A stretch of 64,000 bases of DNA, taken from an uncultured virus (IMG/VR IMGVR_UViG_3300027734_000054) (taxonomy: Duplodnaviria > Heunggongvirae > Uroviricota > Caudoviricetes). The position numbers were made by a program, and so were the translations under genes. The DNA lies in IMG/VR virus record IMGVR_UViG_3300027734_000054. The stretch is one strand, 5' to 3'. The notes beneath the pieces were generated by a model. That model had not been told where the DNA came from and did not search any database. It worked only from the letters and a program-made list of their open reading frames with translations. Below are positions 2,776-61,413 of this stretch, in pieces (position 1 is the stretch's first letter; every line of letters starts with the position of its first letter).

Positions 2776-5301
<2,526 letters not shown>

Positions 5302-8303: not shown

Positions 8304-9251
8304 TCATTTATTAAACATCTGCTGTAATTCGAAAATCAAAGCCAAAAGACTGACTATAGGATCGATTACTTGACTTCTTTGAGATTGATACTTAGCAACA
8401 GTAATTATAGTTACTGGGATAAGATTTAATTTAGATGGATTTTTTTCTTCCAACCATTTAATAAAGTCAGAACTCAAAGAAGCCATAACTTCATCCACTC
8501 TTCCTGAATATTGTCCAACAATATATTGGTAATTACTAATACTGTCAGGTTTAGAAAGAATCATACTGAAAATAGACTCGTGGTCGAAAGTTATTTCGTT
8601 GATTTTACTTTCAGTTAGATCTGTTACCCCATCAATCTGCCATCTTTGAATTGTATTCAATGCAGATCTCATATCTGGGAAATATTTCTTAGAAAAAAGA
8701 TCTAAGCTTTTTTCATCATGATTTATTTCCATTAACGAAAGTATTTTAGAAACCCTTTCCTGCCATTCAATCTTTATTTCGTTTTCCTCTTCTTTATTTA
8801 CAGGATCAAAGTCATACACCTCGAATCTAGATTTAATAGCATCTGGGATCTTGCTTAAATAGTTGCACGTGGCAACAAATCTTGTTGTCTTAGCATATTT
8901 CTCAATTGTGCCTCTTAAAGCCTTGTAGAACTGCTCTGATGCACCATCAAACTCATCTAGTACAACAATCTTAATGTGATTTTCTCCATCAAGAATAGAA
9001 ACTGTAGAACAGAAGTCGTGTACTTTAGTTCTGATTGTCTCAACCGAGCTCTCGTCAGATACGTTTATAAAAATATATGGGTGATTCTTTATTAGAATTT
9101 TAGCCATACTGGTCTTACCTGATCCAGGGGATCCTGAAAGTAAGACATTTTGTTGTAATCCATTTTCGAAAGATCCCTTGATCCTTTGTGGAAGGATCAT
9201 ATGTTTTAATTCCTTTGGCCTTAATTTTTCTGTTAATAATTCTTGTATCAT
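8304..9251 (-). CDS. Clamp loader large subunit (gp44/RFC-like AAA+)
   Basis: EKLRP, GSPGSGKT, LDEFD, SRF and DMR motifs. Confidence 0.92.
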   Translation of the reverse strand: MIQELLTEKLRPKELKHMILPQRIKGSFENGLQQNVLLSGSPGSGKTSMAKILIKNHPYIFINVSDESSVETIRTKVHDFCSTVSILDGENHIKIVVLDEFDGASEQFYKALRGTIEKYAKTTRFVATCNYLSKIPDAIKSRFEVYDFDPVNKEEENEIKIEWQERVSKILSLMEINHDEKSLDLFSKKYFPDMRSALNTIQRWQIDGVTDLTESKINEITFDHESIFSMILSKPDSISNYQYIVGQYSGRVDEVMASLSSDFIKWLEEKNPSKLNLIPVTIITVAKYQSQRSQVIDPIVSLLALIFELQQMFNK

Positions 9252-10576: not shown

Positions 10577-10665
10577 TGGAAGATTTTAAGCAAATGTAGA
10601 AATTCCTACTTAATAATAAAAAGGATTCTATTATTATACTCTACTTAAAATGCTAAGTTCCGATA

Positions 10666-15012: not shown

Positions 15013-15369
15013 TTAAACGTTATAGACAGAGTTCTCTTCTCTTACTATTCTAGAAAAAGGTATAGTTTTAATTGATTTTGGTGGGTGGATTTTTTTCCAT
15101 CCTTTTTTCATACCGTTGTGTGCGATTTGAGATATGAATGCAAAAGGGTTATCGGATTTTGCAGGATCGTAACGATTCCAGTATTTAACTAGATCCTCTA
15201 GCCCTGACGACATACAGTCTTCTCTGTCTTCGCTATCTCTATATGAATGTGTTTTTGACATACCGTTTACTATAAGGGTAAACATTTCAACGGTTTCTCT
15301 TGTGAGCTGGCCTTTTTCTTTGCTTTCTAAAAGTGCTCTTTTTAATTCTTTGTTTTTTACGTAGATCAT
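15013..15369 (-). CDS. Late transcription sigma factor (T4 gp55-like, short)
   Basis: YVKNKEL..REDCMS.GLE..KY..YDP.KS.NPFAFISQI pattern typical of gp55. Confidence 0.8.
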   Translation of the reverse strand: MIYVKNKELKRALLESKEKGQLTRETVEMFTLIVNGMSKTHSYRDSEDREDCMSSGLEDLVKYWNRYDPAKSDNPFAFISQIAHNGMKKGWKKIHPPKSIKTIPFSRIVREENSVYNV

Positions 15370-22116: not shown

Positions 22117-22734
22117 TTAATCGTTAAAAGTTAAATTAACTCCAGGAAACATCTCCCTAACTTTTAATCTCGCTCTTCTTATTCTAGTAGCAATAGCTCT
22201 TTTTTTCATACCATGTTTATCTGCTATTTCTTGGTATTTCATTCTTAGTATCTCTCTATCAAAGAGTATATCCTTATAGATGTCAGGCAGATCCTTCATT
22301 CTTTCTAACACATTTTCGTATAGATCTTCCATTTCGTCAGTATCACTACTAATATAATCGCAATTGTATATGTTATCCTTATAATGACTTACCTTTTGTA
22401 CTGGATTATCGCCATCATCGTTATTTCTAACTATTTCTTGTATGATTGGCATATATCGGTCCTCACTCTTTTTTATTACTAAAGATTCGTTTCTTGCTAT
22501 ATTGTATACCCATGTAGAAAAGTTACCCCTTTGTGGATCATACTGTGATATCTTGGTCCATATCTTAGCCATTGTATTTGACACTGCATCTTCTGCTGCA
22601 TCTGTATCCATTAATATGGATTTACAATGATTTAATAATCCCGGTTTAATTCTTTTATACAATTCCACGAAGTCTTTATCTGAGGACGTCCTCATAAAGC
22701 TTTCTGCTAATTCCTGAATGTTTTTTACTGCCAT
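22117..22734 (-). CDS. ECF-type RNA polymerase sigma factor
   Basis: Region 2 (AEDAVS...FSTWVYNIARN) and region 4 (YQEIAD..ATRIRRAR). Confidence 0.92.
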   Translation of the reverse strand: MAVKNIQELAESFMRTSSDKDFVELYKRIKPGLLNHCKSILMDTDAAEDAVSNTMAKIWTKISQYDPQRGNFSTWVYNIARNESLVIKKSEDRYMPIIQEIVRNNDDGDNPVQKVSHYKDNIYNCDYISSDTDEMEDLYENVLERMKDLPDIYKDILFDREILRMKYQEIADKHGMKKRAIATRIRRARLKVREMFPGVNLTFND

Positions 22735-50391: not shown

Positions 50392-51120
50392 TTATAATTT
50401 ATCTTCTTCGATAATAGAATACCAAAAGATTTGTTGTTTTGAATTTTTTACTAAATTCCAAAATTCGTTCCATTTTTTTTCTGTCGGAATTACTTGACAT
50501 CCAGCAGAATATCCACCAACACAGGGTATACCAGAAGATCCATCTACACCTTTAGGAGATAACCCATAATGAAAATTTGTACCAGTTCCTATATCTTTTT
50601 TTGGTGGATCATATGTTTTTACCACGTTGTCTTTTGCTGAAAATCTATTTACTGGTATTTCCTTTGGAGATAATCCATCAATACTAGGAACCAAAGCAGG
50701 TATTGTTTTATTCGACGATCCAAAAGTGTGAGTTCCGATCTTAAATTTATATTCAGAATCATCCAAAATTGCTACATCGGTATCGAACCAAGCGACAGAA
50801 GGAACTGTGGTGGCTTGGAATGGTGTAATATTAGGATTTTCTTTTTTTGCATTCTTTGGTATAAAATAAATACTGTCAATATATTTTTCTTGACCATTCT
50901 TTCTAGCTTCCAATTTTCTTCTTATTCCTACTATTACTGCATCACCATTATCAATAGATTTTAACGTCTCTTTGTATTTTCCCACTTTAATTAGATCACC
51001 ATGTATTTTTTTAAAAGACACAGGAACCTGTGGAATAACAGGGGATTCTTTGCAATAATTTTTTATGTATTCTTCCCTATTACTCTCGTTAATAAATTCA
51101 GAATATTTTAGGATCATCAT
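50392..51120 (-). CDS. Hypothetical protein with H...SAGCQV motif (possible peptidoglycan peptidase)
   Basis: GTNFH and SAGCQV motifs; N-terminal EFINES. Confidence 0.6.
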   Translation of the reverse strand: MMILKYSEFINESNREEYIKNYCKESPVIPQVPVSFKKIHGDLIKVGKYKETLKSIDNGDAVIVGIRRKLEARKNGQEKYIDSIYFIPKNAKKENPNITPFQATTVPSVAWFDTDVAILDDSEYKFKIGTHTFGSSNKTIPALVPSIDGLSPKEIPVNRFSAKDNVVKTYDPPKKDIGTGTNFHYGLSPKGVDGSSGIPCVGGYSAGCQVIPTEKKWNEFWNLVKNSKQQIFWYSIIEEDKL

Positions 51121-51143
51121 GACCTATATATCTTATTTTTTAG

Positions 51144-51216
51144 ATGTCCCGCCAGGGCTCGAACCTGGACTCTTCTGAACCAAAATCAGACGTGTTGCCA
51201 ATTACACCACAGGACA
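51144..51216 (-). tRNA. tRNA-Gln(TTG)
   Basis: Cloverleaf, anticodon arm TCTGA-TTTTGGT-TCAGA. Confidence 0.95.
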
Positions 51217-51222
51217 TTATAG

Positions 51223-51295
51223 AGCCTTTGACAGGGATCGAACCTGCGACATCTTCATTACAAATGAAGCGCTCTACCAGCTGAGCTACAAAGGC
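51223..51295 (-). tRNA. tRNA-Thr(TGT)
   Basis: Cloverleaf, CTTCA-TTTGTAA-TGAAG. Confidence 0.95.
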
Positions 51296-51296
51296 A

Positions 51297-51373
51297 TGGG
51301 GTGACAGAGGAGAATCGAACTCCCGACCTTCTGAACCACAATCAGACGCTCTAACCAACTGAGCTACCGTCAC
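51297..51373 (-). tRNA. tRNA-His(GTG)
   Basis: Cloverleaf, TCTGA-TTGTGGT-TCAGA, C73, encoded CCA, no encoded G-1. Confidence 0.95.
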
Positions 51374-51375
51374 AG

Positions 51376-51448
51376 TAGCGAGTGGCAGGTTCGAACTGCC
51401 GACCTTCGGGGTATGATTCCGACGCTCTACCAACTGAGCTAACTCGCC
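51376..51448 (-). tRNA. tRNA-Met(CAT), probably elongator
   Basis: Cloverleaf, TCGGA-ATCATAC-CCCGA. Lacks the initiator 1:72 mismatch and the GGG/CCC anticodon stem. Confidence 0.85.
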
Positions 51449-51457
51449 ATATAAAAG

Positions 51458-51531
51458 TGGAGGATAACGGATTCGAACCGTTGACCCCTTGCGTGCAAGG
51501 CAAGTGCTCTAGCCAGCTGAGCTAATCCCAC
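51458..51531 (-). tRNA. tRNA-Ala(TGC)
   Basis: Cloverleaf with G3:U70 and a U2.C71 mismatch. Confidence 0.93.
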
Positions 51532-51606
51532 TGGAGCAGGTACCCGGAATCGAACCGAGATCTTCTGATTGGAAGTCAGAAGTAATGACCGTTATACGAT
51601 ACCTGC
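51532..51606 (-). tRNA. tRNA-Gly(TCC)
   Basis: Cloverleaf, TCTGA-CTTCCAA-TCAGA, encoded CCA. Confidence 0.95.
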
Positions 51607-51609
51607 ATT

Positions 51610-51694
51610 TGGTCGGAGCGGAGGGATTCGAACCCCCAATGCCGTAAGGCGGCTGATTTACAGTCAGCTGAGCAACCAATTGCTCAACACTCCG
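51610..51694 (-). tRNA. tRNA-Tyr(GTA) with C1:G72 and long variable arm
   Basis: Acceptor CGGAGTG/CGCTCCG, A73, CCA; anticodon arm GCTGA-CTGTAAA-TCAGC. Confidence 0.95.
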
Positions 51695-51699
51695 AAGTG

Positions 51700-51772
51700 C
51701 GGGGATGATAGGATTCGAACCTATGACCTACTGATTAACAGTCAGTTGCTACTACCGCTGAGCTACATCCCC
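51700..51772 (-). tRNA. tRNA-Asn(GTT)
   Basis: Cloverleaf, ACTGA-CTGTTAA-TCAGT. Confidence 0.95.
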
Positions 51773-51777
51773 AGTTT

Positions 51778-51866
51778 AGATTAGAGAATATTTGAACGGG
51801 GTGGTTTTTTTGGTCAAAAAATTACAAGGTTTTGATCGAAGTAACCCCTTTCACCGCTTCTAATCT
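51778..51866 (-). ncRNA. Y-RNA-like RNA (copy within tRNA operon 1)
   Basis: Terminal stem AGATTAGA/TCTAATCT enclosing GAAGCGG...GTTACTTC...TATTCTC, the same motif as three RNAs upstream of the Ro60 gene. Confidence 0.75.
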
Positions 51867-51868
51867 TG

Positions 51869-51941
51869 TAGTCCCTGAGGGATTCGAACCCCCGACATTT
51901 TGGATGTAAACCAAACGCTCTACCAACTGAGCTAAGAGACT
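51869..51941 (-). tRNA. tRNA-Val(TAC)
   Basis: Cloverleaf, TTTGG-TTTACAT-CCAAA. Confidence 0.95.
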
Positions 51942-51946
51942 AAATG

Positions 51947-52023
51947 TGGTTGACATAGAAGGATTCGAACCTTCGGCCTTTGACGTATCAGATCAACGCT
52001 CTAACCAACTGAGCTATATGTCA
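51947..52023 (-). tRNA. tRNA-Ile(GAT)
   Basis: Cloverleaf, loop CTGATAC, encoded CCA. Confidence 0.93.
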
Positions 52024-52029
52024 ATGTTG

Positions 52030-52115
52030 CGGAAAGAATTGGAATCGAACCAAATACCAATTAAAGTACGCTTCGCTTAGCAGGCGAGCCCCGTCACCAT
52101 CTGAGATTACTTTCC
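52030..52115 (-). tRNA. tRNA-Ser(GCT), atypical acceptor/T/D junction
   Basis: GGAAAG/CTTTCC, G73, loop CTGCTAA, long variable arm, TTGG-TTCGATT-CCAA. Confidence 0.8.
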
Positions 52116-52244
52116 TTTTTTAATTAACCTTCTGATTCTTTTTATCAATCTTTCGGTGTGTTTAAATTTTATTGTTTCTCTTCTTAAGTTTTCTTTACTA
52201 GAGGGGAAACTTCCTCTTGCTACTATTCTGCTTTCTATCGTCAT
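52107..52244 (-). CDS. Possible small basic protein (45 aa)
   Basis: MTIESRIVARG...LIKKGK* fills the gap between tRNAs. Its stop overlaps the 5' end of tRNA-Ser. Confidence 0.35.
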   Translation of the reverse strand: MTIESRIVARGSFPSSKENLRRETIKFKHTERLIKRIRRLIKKGK

Positions 52245-52261
52245 ATTTTTAAATTTTTTTG

Positions 52262-52333
52262 AGGTCGTGACTGGAATCGAACCAGTATAACTAGTTTTGC
52301 AGACTAGTGCCTAAACCACTCGACCACACGACC
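52262..52333 (-). tRNA. tRNA-Cys(GCA)
   Basis: Cloverleaf, CTAGT-CTGCAAA-ACTAG, U73. Confidence 0.95.
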
Positions 52334-52344
52334 TTATTTATTTG

Positions 52345-52417
52345 AGGCTCCACCTGGATTCGAACCAGGATCAGATCATCCGTAGTGATCTATTCTAATC
52401 CATTGAACTATAGAGCC
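52345..52417 (-). tRNA. tRNA-Arg(ACG)
   Basis: Cloverleaf, GATCA-CTACGGA-TGATC. Confidence 0.95.
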
Positions 52418-52425
52418 TTATTTTG

Positions 52426-52498
52426 CACAAAGGGTAGGACTCGAACCTACGACACCCAGTTTTGGAGACTGGTGCTCTACCAACTGAGCTACCGATGT
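52426..52498 (-). tRNA. tRNA-Trp(CCA)
   Basis: Cloverleaf, CCAGT-CTCCAAA-ACTGG, two acceptor-stem mismatches. Confidence 0.9.
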
Positions 52499-52504
52499 GT
52501 ATAG

Positions 52505-52577
52505 TGATCCCGGAGGGGCTCGAACCCTCGACTCCCGCATTAAAAGTGCGGTGCTCTACCAGCTGAGCTACGAGATC
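52505..52577 (-). tRNA. tRNA-Lys(TTT)
   Basis: Cloverleaf, CCGCA-CTTTTAA-TGCGG. Confidence 0.95.
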
Positions 52578-52648
52578 ATTGTTACTAAACTTGTTTTTGT
52601 AATACTAAACATGATTAGTTTAGTGAGACAATTTCTTGTTTAGTATTG

Positions 52649-52721
52649 TGGTACCGGCCGGAATCGAACCGGCGACACCTAGATTTTCAGTCTAGTGCTC
52701 TACCAACTGAGCTACGGTACC
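52649..52721 (-). tRNA. tRNA-Phe(GAA)
   Basis: Cloverleaf, CTAGA-CTGAAAA-TCTAG. Confidence 0.95.
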
Positions 52722-52735
52722 ATTTTTTTCCAGTA

Positions 52736-52747
52736 TGTCAAAGAACA
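52736..52747 (-). promoter_or_regulatory. boxA antitermination element, operon 1
   Basis: TGTTCTTTGACA, resembling rrn boxA, between the terminator and the first tRNA. Confidence 0.75.
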
Positions 52748-52781
52748 AAAAAAAAGGCTTTGATGTGAATCAAAGCCTTTT
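52747..52781 (-). terminator. Attenuator terminator, operon 1
   Basis: AAAAGGCTTTGAT-TCAC-ATCAAAGCC followed by T9. Confidence 0.9.
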
Positions 52782-52809
52782 CCGAAATATCTAAATATGA
52801 TTTTCTGTA

Positions 52810-52917
52810 TTAGCTTCGATCGGGTTCTTTCCCCTTTGCCCAAAACGCCACCGTTTGATAGCAGCCATTAATCTGACTGATCATGCGATTGATGTTATGT
52901 TTACTACAGTTTTTCAT
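52810..52917 (-). CDS. Leader peptide 1 (35 aa, MKNCSKHNINRMISQINGCYQTVAFWAKGKEPDRS)
   Basis: ATG just downstream of GATATATA. Codons 1-30 use only, and all of, the 16 amino acids of the downstream tRNAs. The 3' end can pair with the terminator 5' arm. Confidence 0.85.
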   Translation of the reverse strand: MKNCSKHNINRMISQINGCYQTVAFWAKGKEPDRS

Positions 52918-52998
52918 TTTTCTTTATTATATATCCTGTTTCCAGAATAGTTTCGTAAAAGTACAATATCTTTTTTAAATAAAAAAATGTTTTTCAAA

Positions 52999-53568
52999 TT
53001 ATTTCAAAAATTTTAAAACTTTTTCTTTTATTCCTGATTGCTTAATCCCTTGCATAATGCTAGGAGTGTGTACAAAGTTTGTTAATCCCCATCCAGTACC
53101 GCTTCTATTATTAGATACTTCTTTAAAGCTCATATCTAAATCATCTATTGCTACCCAATGAGTAACTCCGGAATGGGCCTTTAACCATTCTTGGATTTCT
53201 AAAGTTCTTGATGCTTCTAAATCCCAGTCTGGATGCCATTCTTGGTTTTCTGTGTAAGGATATTCTCTTGGTGTGAAATCTATAGGTTTTTTAATTATTC
53301 CTTGTTGTTCATAGTATTCTCCCATTTCCTCTATTGTTGCCCAGACCTTCCAATCTGAAGAAACAACTATTTCAGCTCCAGTCTCTTCTAGAATTAAATT
53401 TAAAACCTTTATTGCTTTCTTGTCGAAGTTATCAAATCTAGCTCCTACATGAAAACTCATTACATCCTGCGAAAGCTTTTTTCTAGCTTTAGCCTGCTTT
53501 TTGTAACGTCCTCCAAATTGTTGGGAAAGACAAATTACTCCATCATGATCTAAAAATATAATTTTCAT
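52999..53568 (-). CDS. HAD-family phosphatase (Swiss-Army-Knife RNA repair-like HAD domain)
   Basis: IIFLDHDGV, IVVSSDW, R..EI..WL and VAIDD motifs. True ATG at 53568, just after tRNA-Leu. Confidence 0.8.
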   Translation of the reverse strand: MKIIFLDHDGVICLSQQFGGRYKKQAKARKKLSQDVMSFHVGARFDNFDKKAIKVLNLILEETGAEIVVSSDWKVWATIEEMGEYYEQQGIIKKPIDFTPREYPYTENQEWHPDWDLEASRTLEIQEWLKAHSGVTHWVAIDDLDMSFKEVSNNRSGTGWGLTNFVHTPSIMQGIKQSGIKEKVLKFLK

Positions 53569-53570
53569 AG

Positions 53571-53649
53571 TACCCAGGGAGGGACTCGAACCCTCACGCT
53601 TTCGCACTAGATCCTAAATCTAGCGTGTATACCATTTCACCACCTGGGC
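53571..53649 (-). tRNA. tRNA-Leu(TAG)
   Basis: Cloverleaf, CTAGA-TTTAGGA-TCTAG, variable arm. Confidence 0.95.
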
Positions 53650-53653
53650 TTAG

Positions 53654-53726
<73 letters not shown>

Positions 53727-53731
53727 ATATA

Positions 53732-53806
53732 TGGCGGTCCCGCGGAGAATCGAACTCCGAACTCTGCCGTGACAGGGCAGCATTATAGCCGTTTAACTAC
53801 GGGACC
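53732..53806 (-). tRNA. tRNA-Asp(GTC)
   Basis: Cloverleaf, CTGCC-CTGTCAC-GGCAG, G73, CCA. Confidence 0.95.
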
Positions 53807-53817
53807 TTAATTTTTTG

Positions 53818-53889
53818 TACTGCCACGGAGAATCGAACTCCGATTTTATGGATGAAAACCATAGGTCCTAACCGTTAGACGATGGCAGC
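53818..53889 (-). tRNA. tRNA-Glu(TTC)
   Basis: Cloverleaf, TATGG-TTTTCAT-CCATA. Confidence 0.95.
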
Positions 53890-53893
53890 GTAA

Positions 53894-53905
53894 TTTCAAA
53901 GAACA
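53894..53905 (-). promoter_or_regulatory. boxA antitermination element, operon 2
   Basis: TGTTCTTTGAAA. Confidence 0.75.
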
Positions 53906-53913
53906 TATAAAAC

Positions 53914-53942
53914 AAAAAAACCTCTGAGGTTATCAGAGGTTT
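53914..53942 (-). terminator. Attenuator terminator, operon 2
   Basis: AAACCTCTGA-TAACC-TCAGAGG followed by T7. Confidence 0.9.
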
Positions 53943-53963
53943 AAATTATATCGTTATATAAAT

Positions 53964-54053
53964 TTATTTCCTCTGACACTTAATTGTATCCTCTAGAAGG
54001 TCATCTTCTTTATGAAGTTGAAAATCTATTGCGATATTTAAAAAGTGTTTCAT
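53964..54053 (-). CDS. Leader peptide 2 (29 aa, MKHFLNIAIDFQLHKEDDLLEDTIKCQRK)
   Basis: Run GAA GAT GAC CTT CTA GAG GAT matches the downstream Glu/Asp/Leu(TAG) tRNAs. TGTCAGAGG can pair with the terminator 5' arm. Confidence 0.85.
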   Translation of the reverse strand: MKHFLNIAIDFQLHKEDDLLEDTIKCQRK

Positions 54054-54192
54054 TGAAAGCTTTGTTCTTTTTTTATTATATACCTCAAAAGTACAAAAAA
54101 GTTTCTATTAAAAAAAATAAAAATGTGAAATCATCTGGAATTATCTATATTTCTGATCTATATTTGAATCTGTAACAATAATACAATGATCT

Positions 54193-54705
54193 ATGAAAAA
54201 TCTAAAATTAGCATTTATTTTCCTATTCATACTAGGAACAAGTGTAACCGCTTTATCGCAGAATGAAGGCATAGAATCTTTCAACAACACAATGGCTGGA
54301 GCTAGCAAATTGAGAGGCGATGCTTACTATCCATTTTACGATCAACCGGAACTAAGAGGTAAATTCTTAAGCGTAGTAGGGAATCCTAAGCTATGGAAAA
54401 AATTTATTACTAAGAAGGATGAAAGCTATATTGGAGTTTTTGCTCCCGGTGTGGAATGGGATCTTTATACAGAAGACGATATGCTATATGAGCCAATTAT
54501 GATAAAGAGCACAGTAGATTCATATTACGATAGTTTCCTTAAACAGGTAAGATACGACAGATATGAATATGAGGTTCAAACTCAGGACGATGGAACTGTC
54601 CAAGAGATTTATACTCTATTCAAAGATGGCGTATTCTATAGAGAATATATGGTTGGATGGCATTATAACAAGATATGCTCCATATCTGAATATAAAGAGC
54701 AATAA
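54193..54705 (+). CDS. Hypothetical exported protein
   Basis: N-terminal signal peptide MKNLKLAFIFLFILGTSVTALS-Q. Confidence 0.75.
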   Translation: MKNLKLAFIFLFILGTSVTALSQNEGIESFNNTMAGASKLRGDAYYPFYDQPELRGKFLSVVGNPKLWKKFITKKDESYIGVFAPGVEWDLYTEDDMLYEPIMIKSTVDSYYDSFLKQVRYDRYEYEVQTQDDGTVQEIYTLFKDGVFYREYMVGWHYNKICSISEYKEQ

Positions 54706-54733
54706 AAAAAGCCAGCTATATAGCTGGCTTTTT
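54704..54733. terminator. Bidirectional intrinsic terminator
   Basis: A7-GCCAGCTA-TA-TAGCTGGC-T5 between convergent genes. Confidence 0.85.
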
Positions 54734-54752
54734 AGTTTAATGTTTCACACCC

Positions 54753-55448
54753 TTATGCTTTTTTAGGGGAAAGAGCAGCATAACTTTTTGGAAATTCTTC
54801 TACGAATGATTTCATTCCTGGATCTTGTTTAGTTCCGCTATCACCAAACTGTTTGGCCATTTTAGGAATGAATCCTTTTATTGTAATTTCTTTACTGATC
54901 TTCTTCGCGAATTTTTTAAATGTATCAGTTACCGTAGTATTATAAGTAGGAGACAATAGAAGAGTAGTTATAACTTTTGCTAGATTTGTGCCTGCAGTAG
55001 AATCGATGCAAATACCGGATCTTTCCATAAAATTTGCAAGTAGATCTATAGAATTTGAAGCATTATATAATTGACCGCTGGATTTATCTGCGTCAAAATC
55101 TTCCATTTTAGTAATTGCTGCAGGATACCTATCATCCCCATCGACTCTTTCATATATGTAAGCGTATGATTTTCCCTGCTTTAATTCAGGGGGAGTCTTC
55201 TTATCAGCATAATTAGAGGAAGGAAAGTAAATTGATACACTTTTAGGACTTTCACCACCTTTACTAAAGCCAATAATTGTGTCATTACTATTTGTATCAA
55301 CCGTCATTATATTAGCTTTCATGTTACCTAGCTTATCAGATCTATCGGTACCCAAATTATAAGGTACACCTGGTACGATATCGGATTCGTTAATAGGATT
55401 GTAATATTGATTTTCTAGAATAAAATCGTTGAATCTTTTAATTTTCAT
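54753..55448 (-). CDS. Hypothetical protein with capsid-targeting-like N-terminus
   Basis: MKIKRFNDFILEN. Confidence 0.7.
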   Translation of the reverse strand: MKIKRFNDFILENQYYNPINESDIVPGVPYNLGTDRSDKLGNMKANIMTVDTNSNDTIIGFSKGGESPKSVSIYFPSSNYADKKTPPELKQGKSYAYIYERVDGDDRYPAAITKMEDFDADKSSGQLYNASNSIDLLANFMERSGICIDSTAGTNLAKVITTLLLSPTYNTTVTDTFKKFAKKISKEITIKGFIPKMAKQFGDSGTKQDPGMKSFVEEFPKSYAALSPKKA

Positions 55449-55466
55449 TTTTTTATATTTAATTTT

Positions 55467-55745
55467 TTACATGCTCCAAGCTGGATTAGCTACAATTAAC
55501 ATATCTCCTTCTACTCTTGGTATTTGTTTAGTTGAATAAGCATCATCATATTGAATTTGCTCTGGATAAAATTTTTGTCCCTGGAACATGATATAGTTTT
55601 CTTCGTCCTTACCCCTGTGGCTCCATCCTTGACCTCTAAGAGAATCGTGAGCAGCATCGTCAACTGTGGGTTTTCCGAAAAGTGAATCCCAAAATCCTTC
55701 GTTAATTTTGGAATTGTTATCTTGATATTTTTTAAGGTGTTTCAT
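55467..55745 (-). CDS. Hypothetical protein with capsid-targeting-like N-terminus
   Basis: MKHLKKY...INEG, preceded by GATATATA. Confidence 0.7.
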   Translation of the reverse strand: MKHLKKYQDNNSKINEGFWDSLFGKPTVDDAAHDSLRGQGWSHRGKDEENYIMFQGQKFYPEQIQYDDAYSTKQIPRVEGDMLIVANPAWSM

Positions 55746-55779
55746 TTCTTTTTTTTATTTAATCTATATATCTAATATT

Positions 55780-56622
55780 TTATCCACTATAAGGCATTCC
55801 TTCTCCATCTTCAATAGTGATCTCAGAATACATACCAGTTACTATATTAATTAGCTTGTTAATAGTGTCTAATCTTTTATATTCAACATCTAAATTTAAT
55901 TTTTCAGCATGAGATAATCCTGGTAGTAATGTCCCTTCTTGAAACTCAAGTAAGCGTGTAATTACTTGTGAAAATGAAGCAGGCTCATATACAGCACTTA
56001 TTGGTAATTCTAAGTCTGTAGTACTGGCTAATAATTCAGAATCGTATCTTTTTTTAATCAAAAGATAGCTCTCCTCAGCTGTTTTTAAAGTTGAACGAAG
56101 TTGTACAAAGTCAACGATATTATTTCCCGCCGACTCCAGATATATGTCGTCATTGTATTCTGAGTAATTGATTGAATCAAATTGTAAATATTTAGAAACA
56201 GTCCATTCAACTAATATATTATCTGAAGTAATTGAAGAAGCATATATTTCACTTTTTGGTACTTCGATAACAATTTTAAGTGCTATTGTATACTTTTGAT
56301 AATAGTTTTGGTAGAATCTATATGCTTCAGTAGAAAGAAAAGTTTTATCTAAGTTAATAACAGCTTGTCCTTGTTCATTTACCCTTGAGGACTGTTTTGA
56401 TAAATAATCAGTTGAATCTATTATACTAGGTGTTTTAGAATTAAGTACTGGTTCCGCTTCATTTAAACCACTCCTAGATAATAAAGCTACCAACCCAACC
56501 ATAACAGTTACACCTGTCTCTGGGTTAGCAGGTTGTGTGGTAGTGCTACCGTATTCATCAGTTACATCAATTACAAAATTAATTAATAACTCATTGTATT
56601 CATTTAATTTATACTCTTCCAT
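55780..56622 (-). CDS. Hypothetical protein
   Basis: 280-aa ORF. Confidence 0.7.
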   Translation of the reverse strand: MEEYKLNEYNELLINFVIDVTDEYGSTTTQPANPETGVTVMVGLVALLSRSGLNEAEPVLNSKTPSIIDSTDYLSKQSSRVNEQGQAVINLDKTFLSTEAYRFYQNYYQKYTIALKIVIEVPKSEIYASSITSDNILVEWTVSKYLQFDSINYSEYNDDIYLESAGNNIVDFVQLRSTLKTAEESYLLIKKRYDSELLASTTDLELPISAVYEPASFSQVITRLLEFQEGTLLPGLSHAEKLNLDVEYKRLDTINKLINIVTGMYSEITIEDGEGMPYSG

Positions 56623-56725
56623 TATTTTATTAAGTTATAATACTCCTTAAAGTGATCTATTCTATCAGGTACCCCAATAATATCTTCCAAGGTTTTTTAT
56701 CCATTCTATATATCTAATTATCCAA

Positions 56726-57577
56726 TTAGAATCCATTAGTTGATGTATTATAGAAAACCAATCCAGTTACATTAGTCGTTTTAGTAATAGTAGGAGTTGA
56801 GTAATTAAATGTCATTACGTCACCACCACTCAACTCTCCAAATTGTATTCTTATAGGATAATAAACACCCGAAGTTAAAGCGATTGTCCCAGATTTTTCG
56901 ATTGTACCGTGTAATCCACCGTTATTAACTGTTGAGTTTGTTGTAGTGAATCCACTAACAGCATTACTACCAACCCAAACATAGGAGGCATCATCAGATG
57001 AAGTAAAGAATGTGTAGGTTTCTGTGGTGGTTGGTTTGAAATATCCTAACCATTGACAACTGAAATTTTCTCCATCATTCTGAGAAGGTTCAAATATAGA
57101 AGTGGTTTGTACTGATGTTGCCGGATTTCCACCTACCGATGCGGGAGTCGCAGTTGCAAAGAAACTAACATTATCAGCAAAATACCCAGAGTAAGTCGTC
57201 TTATATAAACCTGCAAGATATGGATTTCTGTTAGTCCAATAGTTATTTGCTGTTAACCAATCATTAGCTGCTGAAGCAGATGCTTGTGTAGTACCGCTTA
57301 TTATTTGTACTGTAATTCGAAAAGCTTCATCTGTATTAGTACATCCCCAGAATTGTACAGTGCCTATATTACCTACTTGAGTTGGAAAGTTTCCAGAGGG
57401 TACATCTTTAGCTATTATATAAGAATTATCCTCGTCTGGACCCATCCACCAAGTTAATCCCCCGGGTTTTGCACCATAGTTTAAAGCAGATACACCTACA
57501 CATAATGTACCTACGTTTGTAGTTCCTGAAATTGTTGCTTGTGTTGGATTATATGCGAAAGGTCTTGATGTTGGCAT
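56726..57577 (-). CDS. PA14-domain protein (putative virion carbohydrate-binding)
   Basis: NFS.QW.GYF.P...TYTF...SDD.S.VW, G.YYPIRIQFGE..GG. ATG at 57577 follows GATATATA. Confidence 0.8.
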   Translation of the reverse strand: MPTSRPFAYNPTQATISGTTNVGTLCVGVSALNYGAKPGGLTWWMGPDEDNSYIIAKDVPSGNFPTQVGNIGTVQFWGCTNTDEAFRITVQIISGTTQASASAANDWLTANNYWTNRNPYLAGLYKTTYSGYFADNVSFFATATPASVGGNPATSVQTTSIFEPSQNDGENFSCQWLGYFKPTTTETYTFFTSSDDASYVWVGSNAVSGFTTTNSTVNNGGLHGTIEKSGTIALTSGVYYPIRIQFGELSGGDVMTFNYSTPTITKTTNVTGLVFYNTSTNGF

Positions 57578-57599
57578 ATAGTATATATCAACAAAAAAG

Positions 57600-57704
57600 T
57601 ACAAGAGATTGGACTTGCACCAATATGAACTTTCATTCTCGGGTAGATTACCCTAGCGTCTATCTATCGGATCATTGCAATGATCACACTTCCGCCACTC
57701 TTAT
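57600..57704 (-). ncRNA. tRNA-like RNA with D-loop hairpin insertion and no canonical anticodon loop
   Basis: Acceptor ATAAGAG/CTCTTGT-A; TGGCGGAA...AGACGC D arm with an inserted GATCATT/AATGATC hairpin; GGGTA-ATC-TACCC; T arm ATTGG-TGCAAGT-CCAAT. Confidence 0.7.
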
Positions 57705-57709
57705 ATATG

Positions 57710-57793
57710 TACCCGGGACGGGAATCGAACCCGTACAACCAAATGGTTACAGCATTTTAAGTGCTGCGTGACTACCAATTCCACCACCCGGGC
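57710..57793 (-). tRNA. tRNA-Leu(TAA)
   Basis: Cloverleaf, CAGCA-CTTAAAA-TGCTG, variable arm. Confidence 0.95.
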
Positions 57794-57809
57794 GAATGTG
57801 TAATTTTTG

Positions 57810-57883
57810 TGGTCCCTCACGGGCTCGAACCGTGGACCTACTGATTATGAGTCAGTTGCTCTAACCTACTGAGCTAAAGGACC
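57810..57883 (-). tRNA. tRNA-Ile2(CAT), lysidine type reading ATA
   Basis: GGTCCTTTAGCTCAG...GACTCATAATC resembles bacterial Ile2. Separate Met and fMet tRNAs are present elsewhere. Confidence 0.8.
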
Positions 57884-57887
57884 TAAG

Positions 57888-57961
57888 TAGAGACTATGGG
57901 AGTCGAACCCATGACCGCATGCGTATAAGGCATGTGCTCTAACCAATTGAGCTAAGCCTCT
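57888..57961 (-). tRNA. tRNA-Ile(TAT)
   Basis: Cloverleaf, CATGC-CTTATAC-GCATG, A73. Confidence 0.9.
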
Positions 57962-57969
57962 TGGGGCTG

Positions 57970-58042
57970 TCGGGATACCAGGACTCGAACCTGGGGCCTC
58001 CTGGTCCCAAACCAGGCGATCTACCAACTGATCTACATCCCG
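57970..58042 (-). tRNA. tRNA-Pro(TGG)
   Basis: C1:G72, CCTGG-TTTGGGA-CCAGG. Confidence 0.95.
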
Positions 58043-58045
58043 AAA

Positions 58046-58204
58046 TTGTATGTCTTTAAATATCCCCAGAACATACAAACTGTGCTAACCCACGATTTAG
58101 AGAATAAGTGTGCATATCATTAAAGAATACCGAAATATTCTAACTGTCTACGTTGTAGAGGCATATTCTATCTTCGATCCATACCCAGCGCTAGGCAGAG
58201 GGCT
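58046..58204 (-). ncRNA. Unassigned structured RNA within tRNA operon 3
   Basis: Nested helices: AGCCC/GGGTT, TGCCTAG/CTGGGTA, AGAATA/TATTCT, TCTAC/GTAGA, AGAATAT-TTCG-GTATTCT, TTGTATGT/ACATACAA. Confidence 0.55.
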
Positions 58205-58217
58205 TTTTATTTTTTAG

Positions 58218-58289
58218 TACCCCCGGCGGGAATCGAACCCACATTGACGGTTTAGAAAACCGCTGTTCTATCCGTTGAACTACGGAGGC
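58218..58289 (-). tRNA. tRNA-Arg(TCT)
   Basis: Cloverleaf, GCGGT-TTTCTAA-ACCGT. Confidence 0.95.
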
Positions 58290-58292
58290 AAT

Positions 58293-58382
58293 TGGAGGAG
58301 AGTGAGGGATTCGAACCCCCGGTAGCTTTCACTACGTCAGTTTTCAAGACTGGTGCATTAAACCGGGCTCTGCCAACTCTCC
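58293..58382 (-). tRNA. tRNA-Ser(TGA)
   Basis: Cloverleaf, loop CTTGAAA, long variable arm, CCA. Confidence 0.95.
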
Positions 58383-58399
58383 AATTTGATAATCCAACA

Positions 58400-58411
58400 T
58401 GTCAAAGAACA
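58400..58411 (-). promoter_or_regulatory. boxA antitermination element, operon 3
   Basis: TGTTCTTTGACA. Confidence 0.75.
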
Positions 58412-58412
58412 C

Positions 58413-58445
58413 AAAAAAACCGGGACTTTTTGAAGGTCCCGGTTT
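58413..58445 (-). terminator. Attenuator terminator, operon 3
   Basis: AAACCGGGAC-CTTCAAAAA-GTCCCGG followed by T7. Confidence 0.9.
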
Positions 58446-58478
58446 AGTTAATGATTATTTTTTATTAACACAGGACCT

Positions 58479-58538
58479 TTAGGATCGTCTTATCGACGGT
58501 CTTAATATTGAAGGTGATATGTTAAATATTGTTTTCAT
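58479..58538 (-). CDS. Leader peptide 3 (19 aa, MKTIFNISPSILRPSIRRS)
   Basis: Run ATA TCA CCT TCA ATA TTA AGA CCG TCG ATA AGA matches the downstream Ile(ATA)/Ser(TGA)/Pro/Leu(TAA)/Arg(TCT) tRNAs. AAGGTCCTG can pair with the terminator 5' arm. Confidence 0.88.
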   Translation of the reverse strand: MKTIFNISPSILRPSIRRS

Positions 58539-58588
58539 TTGAACTTTATATATCGTATTTGTTGTTTTGTTTCACAAATATAGATATT

Positions 58589-58870
58589 TTATCTTATATA
58601 AAAAAATGATTTTCTGAAATCTTGAAGATTTATTTTTTTAGACTTACCTAAGTAAGAAGCGATATCTTCTGCAGTCTCTTCATCTTCGAGATCACATAGT
58701 ATGTAGAAATCTGCATCATCTCTAAAATCTATTTTAGATTCTGTATAGAAAAATACATCATCAGATTCTTCTCCTTGATTTGGATCTGAAAAATCTGATT
58801 CTAAATATTCGCAGATCTCTTCTTCCTCAAATTTAAATTCTTCGTATCCTGTATAGACTTTAATTGACAT
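58589..58870 (-). CDS. Hypothetical acidic protein
   Basis: 93-aa ORF. Confidence 0.65.
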   Translation of the reverse strand: MSIKVYTGYEEFKFEEEEICEYLESDFSDPNQGEESDDVFFYTESKIDFRDDADFYILCDLEDEETAEDIASYLGKSKKINLQDFRKSFFYIR

Positions 58871-58872
58871 AA

Positions 58873-59223
58873 TTAGATTTCTTCTACTAATACTTTTTTA
58901 AGTTCGTATGCGCCGTCCTGTCCAGGTACTTCATCATAATATCCAACGATTGAATATCTTCTTCCGTCAGAGCTTGAATCTTCTATCATCTCGATATTGC
59001 TTACCATTGAACTTCCAACGTATTCTGGTTCAGAAGCGCCAGCAATTTCTATTGTTGTATCTTCCCCGTCTGCATTTTGAAAGTTAACAATGTAATTACC
59101 TTCGCTATTTCCGTCGGTAGGTCTAAAATCTGTAGTTTCTGCTTCAAAATGAACATCACTCATAGTGTCTTCCATAGGCATAGCCTCAGTGGAATATTGT
59201 TCGTAAATTCTTAGATATTTCAT
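58873..59223 (-). CDS. Hypothetical acidic protein with capsid-targeting-like N-terminus
   Basis: MKYLRIYEQY, preceded by GATATATA. Confidence 0.7.
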   Translation of the reverse strand: MKYLRIYEQYSTEAMPMEDTMSDVHFEAETTDFRPTDGNSEGNYIVNFQNADGEDTTIEIAGASEPEYVGSSMVSNIEMIEDSSSDGRRYSIVGYYDEVPGQDGAYELKKVLVEEI

Positions 59224-59249
59224 CTTTTTTTTTATTTTATATATCCTTA

Positions 59250-59396
59250 TTATTTACCTTGACCAACGTAAGCTTTCTTGTAGTTCTTAGAATTCTTACT
59301 TACACTACTTTTACACTTGGAATGAATTCCTGGTCTTTTTTTCTTAGAGCTGCGCTTGTGGTTCTTGCTAGAATCTGTAGTTTTAGGTTTAGCCAT
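59250..59396 (-). CDS. Small basic protein (48 aa) ending YKKAYVGQGK
   Basis: ATG with an A-rich upstream region. Fills the gap between co-oriented genes. Below the ORF-track length cut-off. Confidence 0.7.
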   Translation of the reverse strand: MAKPKTTDSSKNHKRSSKKKRPGIHSKCKSSVSKNSKNYKKAYVGQGK

Positions 59397-59405
59397 TTTT
59401 TATTT

Positions 59406-59684
59406 TTATTTGAGCTTAGCTGGGGTATCTTTTTTAGAGATGAATCCTCCTTTGTTAAACATATTTTGGTTTACAGTAAATCTTTTTGAGTTTTGATTTA
59501 GGTTCTGTAGGGTGATAATAGTATCAGATACTTCATAAACTTCACAAGGAGCTCCCATATAAACTAATTTGTCACCTACTGATAAATTTGAAAATGGAAA
59601 TTCTTCTCCGTATCCTTTTAATATATTAGAACCAGAAGTATAAACCTCGTAACTGTGATTCTCAAATGTCTTTAAATTTTTCAT
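59406..59684 (-). CDS. Hypothetical protein with capsid-targeting-like N-terminus
   Basis: MKNLKTFENH. ATG at 59684 preferred because the longer start overlaps a terminator. Confidence 0.65.
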   Translation of the reverse strand: MKNLKTFENHSYEVYTSGSNILKGYGEEFPFSNLSVGDKLVYMGAPCEVYEVSDTIITLQNLNQNSKRFTVNQNMFNKGGFISKKDTPAKLK

Positions 59685-59766: not shown

Positions 59767-61413
59767 TTAGGCTTCTACTGAATCCCAAATGTCTATAATT
59801 GCTTTAGCAAATATTGGTTCTTTACCTGTCCATCCTGCTAATATTCCTCCTCTATAAAGAGCTTCAGGAAGCACGGTGTTATTGTAGCCACCCACCTGTA
59901 CAGTAAATAAATTAACTTTAGGATTAACCTTTTCCCTGTATTCCTGAGCCATAGCAAGTACGTCTACGTGTGTTCCCCCTCCTTTCGGGTGGATAAATTT
60001 ACTTGATCCTACTGTTTCTCTGTGTCCAAAAAGACCTCCGTGCCCTGCCTGCATATCTGAATAGATAAAGATGTTGTCGTAATGGACTTTATTTTTAATA
60101 GCTTCATCAAAGAATACCCAAATACCATTTTCTGTACCACCTCCTTGAGCTTTACCTCTTTTAGATGTTTCATCCAATTGAGTAAGAAGACCGTTTCTTT
60201 TAGATACACCTTTTAATGAAAGGTTATCTCCAAATACTCCAACCTCTCCAGAATCGGATTGTAGTGAGGTAATTAAAGAAGACAAGTTAGCAATTTCTGC
60301 CACGGTAACTGTTCCATATTCGCTATTGAAAGCTCCCCATGCAGATCCGGAGTTATCTGAAAGACAAACTGTTTTACCTTTTAACTTAGGCATATTCTCA
60401 ACAGAGATATCTAAACATTCCTCTAAAGTATCCAAAACAAGTTGTTTGTGGTGGATCTGAGAATCTGTTACTGCTCTATAAGCAGACCAATATCTAAAAG
60501 GAAATTGTTTTCCCTTAACAACACCCGATTTTAATTGTGTTAAAATTCTAGCAGTAATTGTAGGATCTTCAACTTCAGTAAAAATACCTCTAAGGTTTCT
60601 CAAAAGAGCCATGTGAGGGATTAAGATAGTATTTGTGATCTCTTCCCAAGATTTCTTTTCAGATCTTAAATTCTCCCAAGTTTTTTCCCGTTCTGTTATT
60701 TTTAATGTACCAGTTGACATTAGTTCGTTAATGTCCTCGCTTTTACCGTGGGAAATACGAACAAGATCTATTAATCTTTTACCTTTGTACTTATTCAATT
60801 GGTATCTAGAGAATTCAGAAAGTCTTTCTGCCCAAGTTCTTTTTACTAGTGAGGAAAGTCCTTTTTTGCTTCCGTTCTTATACATGTAGTATTCAAACTG
60901 ATTTGTTAAATCATCTGGACGTAGAGCAATTGACTTGCCTATCATTTTCATATATCCCGGATTTTCTTCGTTAAACTTCTGACGTCCTTCGTGCATACTC
61001 GCTTTCATGAATATTACAGCAGGATTTAAACGCATATAGTACTCGTTACGAAGTTCTAATGCTAAATCCAAGGTTGATTTAAAGTCGAAGTCCAATGATG
61101 CTTGTATGGCTTCCTCAAATATATCTACAACGCTCATATCGTCTTTTAAAGCTCCGGATTCGGATTTGAACATAGGAGCTAATATAGAATAGTCAAGGAT
61201 AGTGATAAGATTCTTAGGAGCACCTAATCCGTCTCTATAGTATTGTGGTTCACCAAAGATCGAAGACGCAGCAACAATCTTTAAAGTGTTTAGAGGCGAT
61301 AAAACATAAGATGTTCCTCCCATGAAGTTCTCCACTCCTAGTGCTCCGTAAGTGGAGTTTTGTAAAATTTGCATTGCTGTTTTTTTGTCAGCAAATTCGC
61401 TTATTCTTGACAT
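59767..61413 (-). CDS. rsr: Ro60 / TROVE-domain RNA-binding protein with C-terminal vWA
   Basis: N..GG.SY, R.E..MR..P, YQLNKY, L.DLVRISH, TWE, MALLRNLR, QFPFRY.SAY, D.SGS MIDAS and SDMQ motifs. Confidence 0.92.
   Translation of the reverse strand: MSRISEFADKKTAMQILQNSTYGALGVENFMGGTSYVLSPLNTLKIVAASSIFGEPQYYRDGLGAPKNLITILDYSILAPMFKSESGALKDDMSVVDIFEEAIQASLDFDFKSTLDLALELRNEYYMRLNPAVIFMKASMHEGRQKFNEENPGYMKMIGKSIALRPDDLTNQFEYYMYKNGSKKGLSSLVKRTWAERLSEFSRYQLNKYKGKRLIDLVRISHGKSEDINELMSTGTLKITEREKTWENLRSEKKSWEEITNTILIPHMALLRNLRGIFTEVEDPTITARILTQLKSGVVKGKQFPFRYWSAYRAVTDSQIHHKQLVLDTLEECLDISVENMPKLKGKTVCLSDNSGSAWGAFNSEYGTVTVAEIANLSSLITSLQSDSGEVGVFGDNLSLKGVSKRNGLLTQLDETSKRGKAQGGGTENGIWVFFDEAIKNKVHYDNIFIYSDMQAGHGGLFGHRETVGSSKFIHPKGGGTHVDVLAMAQEYREKVNPKVNLFTVQVGGYNNTVLPEALYRGGILAGWTGKEPIFAKAIIDIWDSVEA

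Follow-up and report, generated by a model that had tools for sequence, protein, structure and literature searches.

Why bacteriophages carry tRNA genes, and how those genes are timed and dosed, is an open question; the current explanations (compensation for codon usage, replacement of degraded host tRNAs and escape from anticodon nucleases) are silent on regulation. The question arises in concrete form in the 64,000-nucleotide stretch of DNA analysed here (IMG/VR record IMGVR_UViG_3300027734_000054, hereafter the window), a fragment of a T4-like myovirus whose sequence is present in freshwater metagenomes; for 51000-59000, the matching sequencing runs were DNA metagenomes only, with no RNA run among them. 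The window contains 25 tRNA genes, all on the minus strand and grouped in three blocks (operons A, B and C). At the head of every block stands a unit of the same four parts: a promoter-like block, a short open reading frame (ORF), a hairpin followed by a U-tract, and a conserved block, GTTCTTTGA(C/A)AT. We asked what this unit does ahead of operon B, where it occupies the intergenic region hereafter called leader B. An initial annotation of the locus had proposed that leader B attenuates a Glu/Asp/fMet/Leu(TAG) operon through a run of codons spelling EDDLLED. We consider it likely that leader B is a ribosome-mediated (leader-peptide) transcription attenuator lying between a promoter and a phage tRNA operon. 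Every sequence-level part of the proposal was found and recurs in 10 orthologues, although the case for the exact codons is weaker than had been stated.

Architecture of leader B and the proposed switch

Operon B (53889-53570, minus strand, as are all leader and tRNA features of the window given below) comprises tRNA-Glu (ttc; 53817-53889), tRNA-Asp (gtc; 53732-53806), tRNA-Met (cat; 53653-53726) and tRNA-Leu (tag; 53570-53649). The tRNA-Met possesses a C1xU72 mismatch, and its anticodon stem is closed by three G-C pairs; we take these features to be the marks of a bacterial initiator, and on these grounds the label of fMet stands.

All of the features that had been described in leader B were present on the minus strand, correct to the base. 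The putative promoter block GAAACTTTTTTGTACTTTTG (54086-54105) ends in the octamer TACTTTTG (54093-54086), which fits the Bacteroidetes-type -7 box, presumably TAnnTTTG. This block has a single exact match in the window and is kept in 10/10 leader B orthologues; a scan with the sigma-70 consensus flagged nothing at it. The leader ORF (53964-54053) begins with ATG at 54053 and runs for 29 codons to a stop at 53966-53964, encoding the peptide MKHFLNIAIDFQLHKEDDLLEDTIKCQRK. Codons 16 to 22 (GAA GAT GAC CTT CTA GAG GAT, or EDDLLED; 53988-54008) are the candidate sensor, all seven being readable by the operon's own Glu-ttc, Asp-gtc and Leu-tag under assumed wobble rules. Three further codons, ACA ATT AAG, separate codon 22 from TGTCAGAGG (codons 26-28; 53970-53978), the 5' strand of the candidate antiterminator, which a ribosome at the stop codon would cover. 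An intrinsic terminator hairpin with a 10-bp stem and a 5-nt loop (AAACCTCTGA-TAACC-TCAGAGGTTT; 53918-53942) follows, together with a U-tract of seven Ts (53920-53914), and ends 28 nt ahead of tRNA-Glu. The 5' arm of the hairpin includes CCTCTGATA (53939-53931). TGTCAGAGG repeats the 3' arm, and the 9-bp pairing with the 5' arm claimed for it is indeed present, as eight Watson-Crick pairs and one G-U pair. The conserved block, here GTTCTTTGAAAT (53893-53904), lies between the U-tract and tRNA-Glu.

We infer from this arrangement a switch of the following kind. Transcription would begin a few bases past the -7 box at 54093-54086, and a ribosome would translate the 29-codon leader. If decoding is fast, the ribosome at the stop codon (53966-53964) would cover TGTCAGAGG, the terminator (53942-53918) would form and the transcript would end at the U-tract before tRNA-Glu. 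Were the ribosome instead to stall at the Glu, Asp or Leu(CTN) codons 16 to 22, TGTCAGAGG would be left free to capture the 5' arm of the terminator before the 3' arm had been made. With the terminator thus blocked, RNA polymerase would continue into tRNA-Glu, tRNA-Asp, the initiator tRNA-Met, tRNA-Leu(tag) and the HAD_SAK_2 gene that follows them. Because the sensed codons are those read by the operon's own tRNAs, such a switch would constitute negative feedback on decoding capacity: a shortage of usable tRNA would turn the operon on and the newly made tRNAs would turn it off.

The antiterminator duplex of leader B has a predicted energy of -14.1 kcal/mol against a shuffle mean of -6.7 (sd 1.9), and 0/300 dinucleotide shuffles of the upstream 70 nt reached it. 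In every other leader family examined, the partner of the terminator 5' arm likewise overlaps the end of the ORF. The duplex of leader A reaches -16.5 kcal/mol (0/300 shuffles reach it), and those of family D, a distant branch of the window's lineage, -19.9 and -21.2 kcal/mol (4/300 and 1/300). In the cultured Cellulophaga phage phi4:1, the corresponding values are -11.8 kcal/mol for leader 1 (25/300) and -15.0 kcal/mol for leader 3 (4/300). The duplex of leader C, at -12.5 kcal/mol, was no better than chance (57/300), while the version of leader C in a related contig (L008) reaches -14.6 kcal/mol (10/300).

Folds of the nascent RNA ending before the 3' arm placed the terminator 5' arm in a duplex with its upstream partner in 10/11 leaders; the exception was phi4:1 leader 1, in which the arm was unpaired. 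For full-length leader B RNA without a ribosome, the minimum-energy fold consisted of the terminator plus weak upstream pairing. In this fold the 5' end of the ORF pairs weakly with AAGTG/TCA/GAGG, making it a candidate for an anti-antiterminator (1:2) helix. By eye, no conserved 1:2 helix is evident in the alignment of leader B, the bases being neither kept nor compensated in L091, L093, L103 and L102, and such a helix was left out of the model.

The initial annotation had further suggested that loss of initiator tRNA would leave the leader untranslated and the antiterminator free. This fits a switch without an anti-antiterminator, in which any failure to translate the leader would give read-through, alike in leaders A, B and C; the folding of the untranslated state is equivocal, however, since the antiterminator of untranslated leader B forms before the 3' arm exists, yet the full-length naked RNA prefers the terminator. 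The same reasoning had been offered to explain why tRNA-fMet sits in operon B, and this it does not do: ATG is the start codon of every one of the three leaders, and one CAT tRNA is present in each operon. Given the shared ATG start, a lack of initiator tRNA would be expected to open all three attenuators alike.

Conservation of the leader and of the block beyond the terminator

Relatives of the HAD protein encoded after operon B provided 80 viral-contig loci. These 80, phi4:1 (L001, KC821632) and the window were scanned for tRNAs, and 48/82 were without any. A 19-nt post-terminator pattern retrieved 22 loci, 13 of them with an orthologue of leader B (one being the window's own sequence). Ten distinct leader B sequences were aligned, with L090, L098, L100 and L101, whose leader peptide was identical to that of a kept row, dropped; these orthologues do not count as independent samples. 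All ten retain the ATG, the stop in its position, the antiterminator segment and the terminator.

Insertions and deletions in the leader B ORF amount to three events, of 12, 3 and 3 nt, as against 1-2 nt in the 5' leader, spacer and loop. The homologous leader C contributes two more ORF indels, both of 3 nt, and those outside its ORF are again of 1-2 nt. That the indels inside the ORFs keep the frame is the main evidence that these leaders are read by ribosomes, and the fixed positions of start and stop argue in the same direction.

A leader RNA that binds a protein, a tRNA or another ligand independently of translation, with the ORF being incidental, is a reading that we regard as very improbable, though two features of the alignment would suit it. 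First, the non-coding parts are better conserved than the ORF: in the eight sequences of the window's lineage 0/25 hairpin columns vary, and the proportion is 3/21 in the spacer and 2/24 in the U-tract and block, compared with 29-41% in the ORF. Second, the substitutions in the ORF are not of a coding type, with 7, 10 and 12 of 29 columns variable at codon positions 1, 2 and 3, and the third-codon-position test shows no coding signature, a pattern that also counts against translation of leader B itself but is expected if the leader peptide has no function of its own. Conversely, 5/5 indel events inside the ORFs of leaders B and C keep the frame when indels outside do not, the start and stop are fixed in position, and the codon-class match of five other leaders (below) would be inexplicable without decoding. 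In a scan of 53890-54105 at a permissive threshold, no leader family (Trp, Thr, Phe, His, Leu) and no T-box, nor any other Rfam family, reached its gathering score; among leader-family matches in 50500-59500, all below threshold, Thr_leader scored 25.7 bits against 55 at leader A, and Phe_leader and Trp_leader matches fell near 54650-54800. T-box riboswitches resemble the proposed switch in that the state of tRNA sets read-through through a choice between terminator and antiterminator. They differ in binding uncharged tRNA directly, without a ribosome, and in possessing a specifier loop and the conserved T-box sequence.

The antiterminator segment is invariant in eight of the orthologues and altered in step with the terminator in the other two, L102 and L089. 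In these the 5' arm reads CCTCGGT for CCTCTGA, the 3' arm ACCGAGG for TCAGAGG, and the upstream segment at the end of the ORF GCCGAG in place of TCAGAGG. Thus one position of the arm has changed from T to G and both of its alternative partners from A to C, which is what a terminator/antiterminator switch predicts. The altered duplex is weaker (-12.8 kcal/mol; 10/300 shuffles reach it). Column-wise pair counts were made on family D rather than on leader B, where MAFFT offsets the arm of L102/L089 by one base. In the seven aligned leaders of family D both helices are paired, in 98.2% and 96.6% of cells, compared with 36-76% when the partner is slid.

The conserved block beyond the terminator bears on a further interpretation. 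T4-type phages possess promoter-stem-loop cassettes, where an early promoter comes after a terminator hairpin, and leader B is similar in that a hairpin and U-tract immediately precede the next transcription unit of a T4-like genome. Under this interpretation the ORF would be a mini-gene ended by the hairpin, and tRNA expression would depend on a promoter located at the U-tract or beyond it, which a phage sigma factor might read. The strong conservation of the block after the U-tract (2/24 columns variable) is in keeping with it, as is the resemblance of the U-tract plus G to the -7 box as we take it to be, with one mismatch; moreover, the phage encodes sigma-70-family proteins, so that a phage-specific promoter at the block is conceivable and tells to that extent against attenuation. 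We nevertheless think this account improbable. No sigma-70-like promoter was found by the consensus scan between the terminator and tRNA-Glu (53917-53890), and the block is without the TA of the presumed Bacteroidetes -7 box. Its spacing is variable, at 6-22 nt from the tRNA 5' end and -1 to 8 nt from the U-tract. A cassette also leaves unexplained the overlap of the antiterminator with the end of the ORF and the operon-specific codons; in leader B the hairpin is linked with an ORF and an antiterminator that precede it, and no recognisable promoter comes after it.

The most direct comparison comes from L068, L078 and L017, where a regular -7 box (TATATTTG) precedes the conserved block by 5 nt and leader ORF and terminator are missing. 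The block would therefore be transcribed sequence in these contigs, and its role as a promoter was rejected as the main reading on this ground together with those just given; it is probably a transcribed 5' leader element of the tRNA precursor. In L068 a promoter block of the leader B type appears to drive tRNA-Glu directly, which implies that the leader ORF and terminator are a module inside the tRNA transcription unit. TCTTTGA(C/A)AT occurs three times in the 64-kb window, each time at a tRNA operon (53893-53904, 52735-52746 and 58399-58410), and among the fetched loci 30/65 distinct contexts of GTTCTTTGA lie no more than 40 nt upstream of a tRNA.

Codon content of the leaders

The codons of each leader were compared with the anticodons of its operon under assumed wobble rules, whereby U34 reads a whole family box, or A/G in split boxes, G34 reads C/U, A34 reads U/C/A, and the anticodon tat reads ATA only; the background was codon usage in the window's 45 long ORFs. 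On this basis the genetic code is divided among the three operons without overlap, and only CGG, AGT and AGC are left unassigned.

The candidate sister attenuator A (58417-58538; 19-codon leader ORF 58538-58479, terminator 58445-58417) heads the Ser, Arg, Pro, Ile(tat), Met, Leu(taa) operon, and 13/18 of its codons belong to its own operon's class against a background of 0.208 (p = 4e-6). Its longest run, with one mismatch allowed, is 12 codons, a length found in 0/20000 random segments. Sister attenuator C (52750-52917; 35-codon leader ORF 52917-52810, terminator 52783-52750) heads the 15-tRNA operon Phe...Gln; here 27/33 codons are of the own class (background 0.598; p = 0.006) and the longest run is 24 (14/20000). 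Leader B has 9/28 own-class codons (background 0.174; p = 0.04) and a longest run of 7, which was attained by 54/20000 random 28-codon pieces of the window's own long ORFs. In the other two reading frames, the match is lost in leaders A and B.

The match extends to the choice among isoacceptor codons. For the amino acids split between operons (Ile, Leu and Arg), codon choice tracks the operon, with own codons making up 7/8 in leader A, 5/5 in C and 3/8 in B. The own codons of leader A are four ATA, one TTA and two AGA, and leader C uses ATC/ATT and the rare CGC/CGA; in leader B all three Leu codons in and just before the run are CTN (CTT, CTT, CTA).

Among the leader B orthologues, all ten possess 7-10 own-class codons of 24-30, clustered before the antiterminator, with longest runs of 2-7. 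In L102 and L089 the operon also holds Pro-tgg, and their leaders have three Pro codons as compared with none in the other eight; two of the three belong to the antiterminator, and the match to Pro-tgg is merely suggestive.

The same design was found in independent lineages. Ahead of each of the three tRNA blocks of phage phi4:1 come a promoter of Bacteroidetes type (TATGTTTG box), a short ORF and a hairpin. Leader 1 (3714-3782 in L001; …QRLHLQELEQP…) has 11 consecutive own-class codons ahead of an operon of Pro, Glu, Gln, His, Leu, Leu and Arg. Leader 2 (gp075; 4674-4757, probably starting at GTG 4674) has 21/26 (p = 1e-4) ahead of Ala, Lys, Ile, Gly, Met, Asp, Thr, Val, Arg and Met. Leader 3, the ORF before tRNA-Tyr at 6575 (…NYCTYNNSNWSFSY…), has 11/31, counted by codon, ahead of Tyr, Ser, a gene called Asn, Trp and Phe. 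Two of these leaders are unannotated in the phi4:1 record, and gp075 is annotated from a TTG inside the promoter.

In an unrelated 319-kb viral contig (L097), 12 of the first 15 leader codons are for Ser, Tyr or Phe, and the tRNAs that follow are Tyr, Ser(gga), Tyr, Ser(gct) and Phe. At the amino-acid level p is 3e-8 for the 15-codon window, which was picked after the pattern had been seen, and 2e-6 for the whole ORF. This leader (MSYLFSSYLYSSSSLF...) and its terminator lie at about 1375-1520, and its Ser codons are both TCN and AGY.

Family D allows leaders of related operons to be compared. The operon of L014 (leader at 8857-9037) retains only Trp, Ile, Phe, Gly, Asp and Gln; the L014 leader differs from that of L019 (7915-8093) by eight amino-acid changes, 8/8 of them to codons read by the L014 set; just 3/8 of the replaced codons had been in that set.

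The tRNA region of phage T5 (L104, NC_005859) was inspected for an ORF-terminator-tRNA design, which was present in 0/14 small annotated ORFs translated, looking 70 nt past the stop. Only T5.072 had a hairpin in that interval, and the annotated promoter P14a follows it. T5.072 (10618-10893) contains a stretch rich in Trp, Glu, Tyr and Phe (..SWEGWEGEIEWLYFY..) and is followed by the hairpin, P14a and tRNAs for Tyr, Glu, Trp and Phe; its geometry is unlike that of an attenuator, the stretch lying some 60 codons ahead of the stop, and the resemblance may be due to chance.

Several of our observations weigh against attenuation by leader B, or against its dependence on particular codons. Leader B has the weakest codon match of the three, its whole-ORF enrichment being marginal (p = 0.04), and its interpretation leans on the paralogues A and C. 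Conservation of EDDLLED had been set as a check on the original proposal, and the exact heptad is present in just 3/10 orthologues, the longest own-class run in L089 being 2. The statistical tests were designed once the pattern had been seen. L027 and L078, in family D, keep the ancestral leader in front of reduced operons without Asn and Lys tRNAs, 9 and 10 of 36 codons matching. The three-way covariation in L102/L089 is a single evolutionary event, and pairing in family D is kept through one-sided changes only, with a flat and uninformative shuffle control. As to geometry, the last sensor codon is just 9 nt from the antiterminator strand, from which it follows that stalls early in the run should work best. 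Equilibrium folds of leader B with a 27-nt ribosome mask, whose outcome depends on the assumed footprint and which serve as illustration rather than proof, gave the antiterminator as the minimum-energy structure for stalls at codons 5-13, 17 and 19 and favoured the terminator for stalls at codons 16, 18 and 20-23. These folds are not clean, and the attenuator model consequently needs a kinetic argument.

Some of the same data would suit an attenuator that is real but not codon-specific, in which the leader reports only whether translation takes place at all and keeps pace with RNA polymerase, and the Glu/Asp/Leu cluster is incidental. Besides the marginal enrichment and the interruption of the run in 7/10 orthologues, acidic stretches are common in proteins and the leader peptide evolves fast at all codon positions. 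We judge this reading unlikely. A run of seven is rare in the phage's own genes (54/20000), 10/10 orthologues hold 7-10 own-class codons just before the antiterminator, leaders A and C and the three phi4:1 leaders are clearly operon-specific, and the three Pro codons are confined to L102/L089, whose operon holds Pro-tgg. With regard to the claim that EDDLLED, by covering Glu, Asp and CTN Leu, controls the operon, the rarity of the run speaks for it and the marginal enrichment of the whole leader against it. Codon-dependent attenuation is, in our view, well supported at the level of the system and moderately supported for the specific codons of leader B.

Relation to known attenuators and surroundings of the tRNA operons

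The leaders of enterobacterial amino-acid operons include multivalent examples such as thrL (Thr and Ile codons) and that of ilv (Ile, Val and Leu), as well as trpL, hisL, leuL and pheL. Leader B resembles them in combining a short ORF bearing a function-tied codon cluster with an intrinsic terminator and a mutually exclusive antiterminator at the 3' end of the ORF, and it resembles the thr and ilv leaders in that several amino acids would be sensed by one leader. It differs in what it would regulate, namely tRNAs and a gene of RNA-repair type rather than biosynthetic enzymes. The codons of the phage leaders moreover spell out the anticodon set of the operon itself, in A and C even at the level of isoacceptor codons; the leaders show no conserved 1:2 helix, and they belong to a phage of probable Bacteroidota. 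Closest in purpose is the pheM leader attenuator of Escherichia coli pheST, a cellular system that controls phenylalanyl-tRNA synthetase and senses one amino acid. In both cases leader-peptide attenuation would act on a gene of the translation apparatus, such that decoding capacity feeds back on its own supply; in leader B the target is a tRNA operon rather than a synthetase, several amino acids are involved and the system is viral. A full-text literature search, whose coverage excluded subscription journals, found no paper on leader-peptide control of tRNA genes, and passages of PMC3082878 and PMC8860593 contained nothing on the subject. Relative to known attenuators, the new elements of leader B would be its tRNA-gene target, the codon-level match to the operon's anticodons and the viral, Bacteroidota-type setting.

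If the attenuator reading is correct, a phage can gauge decoding capacity for each codon class and resupply tRNAs on demand. Attenuation of the trp type, the oldest known RNA-based control logic, would thereby be extended from the supply of amino acids to that of tRNAs, and would be shown in viruses and in Bacteroidota-type transcription units. The prediction is directly testable, for the same design occurs in the cultured pair of Cellulophaga baltica and phi4:1, and leaders of this kind could find use in synthetic biology as compact codon-specific sensors of tRNA availability.

A 189-aa protein matching HAD_SAK_2 (PF18143, E = 7.6e-22), the HAD domain found in "Swiss Army Knife" proteins of RNA repair, is encoded behind operon B (52999-53568, minus strand). 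A single nucleotide separates its gene from tRNA-Leu(tag), and in relatives too the gene comes directly behind that tRNA. No terminator-like site was found between the operon B tRNAs and this gene, and it probably shares their transcript for that reason. A 548-aa TROVE (Ro60-like) protein is encoded on the minus strand just upstream of operon A (59770-61413), and weak, sub-threshold Rfam matches of YrlA type overlap tRNAs. The TROVE and HAD genes hint at a theme of RNA quality control and repair around the tRNA region.

A more speculative extension, which we hold to be possible but doubtful, is that the three attenuators act together as a codon-resolved sensor of tRNA damage or shortage serving phage counter-defence. 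Host anticodon nucleases, tRNA-cleaving toxins or phage-induced host shutoff would deplete particular tRNAs and stall ribosomes on the matching leader, so that only the operon with the replacement tRNAs would open. Operon B would add initiator tRNA and a HAD-type RNA-repair phosphatase, with the Ro/TROVE protein encoded nearby. Should this be true, large Bacteroidota phages would share a self-limiting regulon for repair and resupply.

Elsewhere in the window are genes for a T4-type portal and terminase, tail sheath, a RecA-like protein, a DnaB-like helicase and two sigma-70-family proteins (15016-15369 and 22120-22734). The portal gene is present as two tandem gp20-like paralogues (10669-12309 and 12316-13932). 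On the opposite strand, a gene at 54193-54705 diverges from the intergenic region of leader B. A search for close relatives of the window in a collection of named phages gave matches of tRNA size only.

Between tRNA-Cys and tRNA-Ile of operon C (52030-52244, minus strand) lie a very basic 45-aa ORF (52244-52107) and a class-II tRNA-like element (52030-52116), the latter scoring 36.6 bits as tRNA-Sec, below the threshold of 47. Suppressor-like tRNAs occur in relatives, with anticodon TTA in L008 (near 4767) and CTA in L086, a 214-kb contig (2294-2368), and could point to stop codons having been reassigned in some of these phages.

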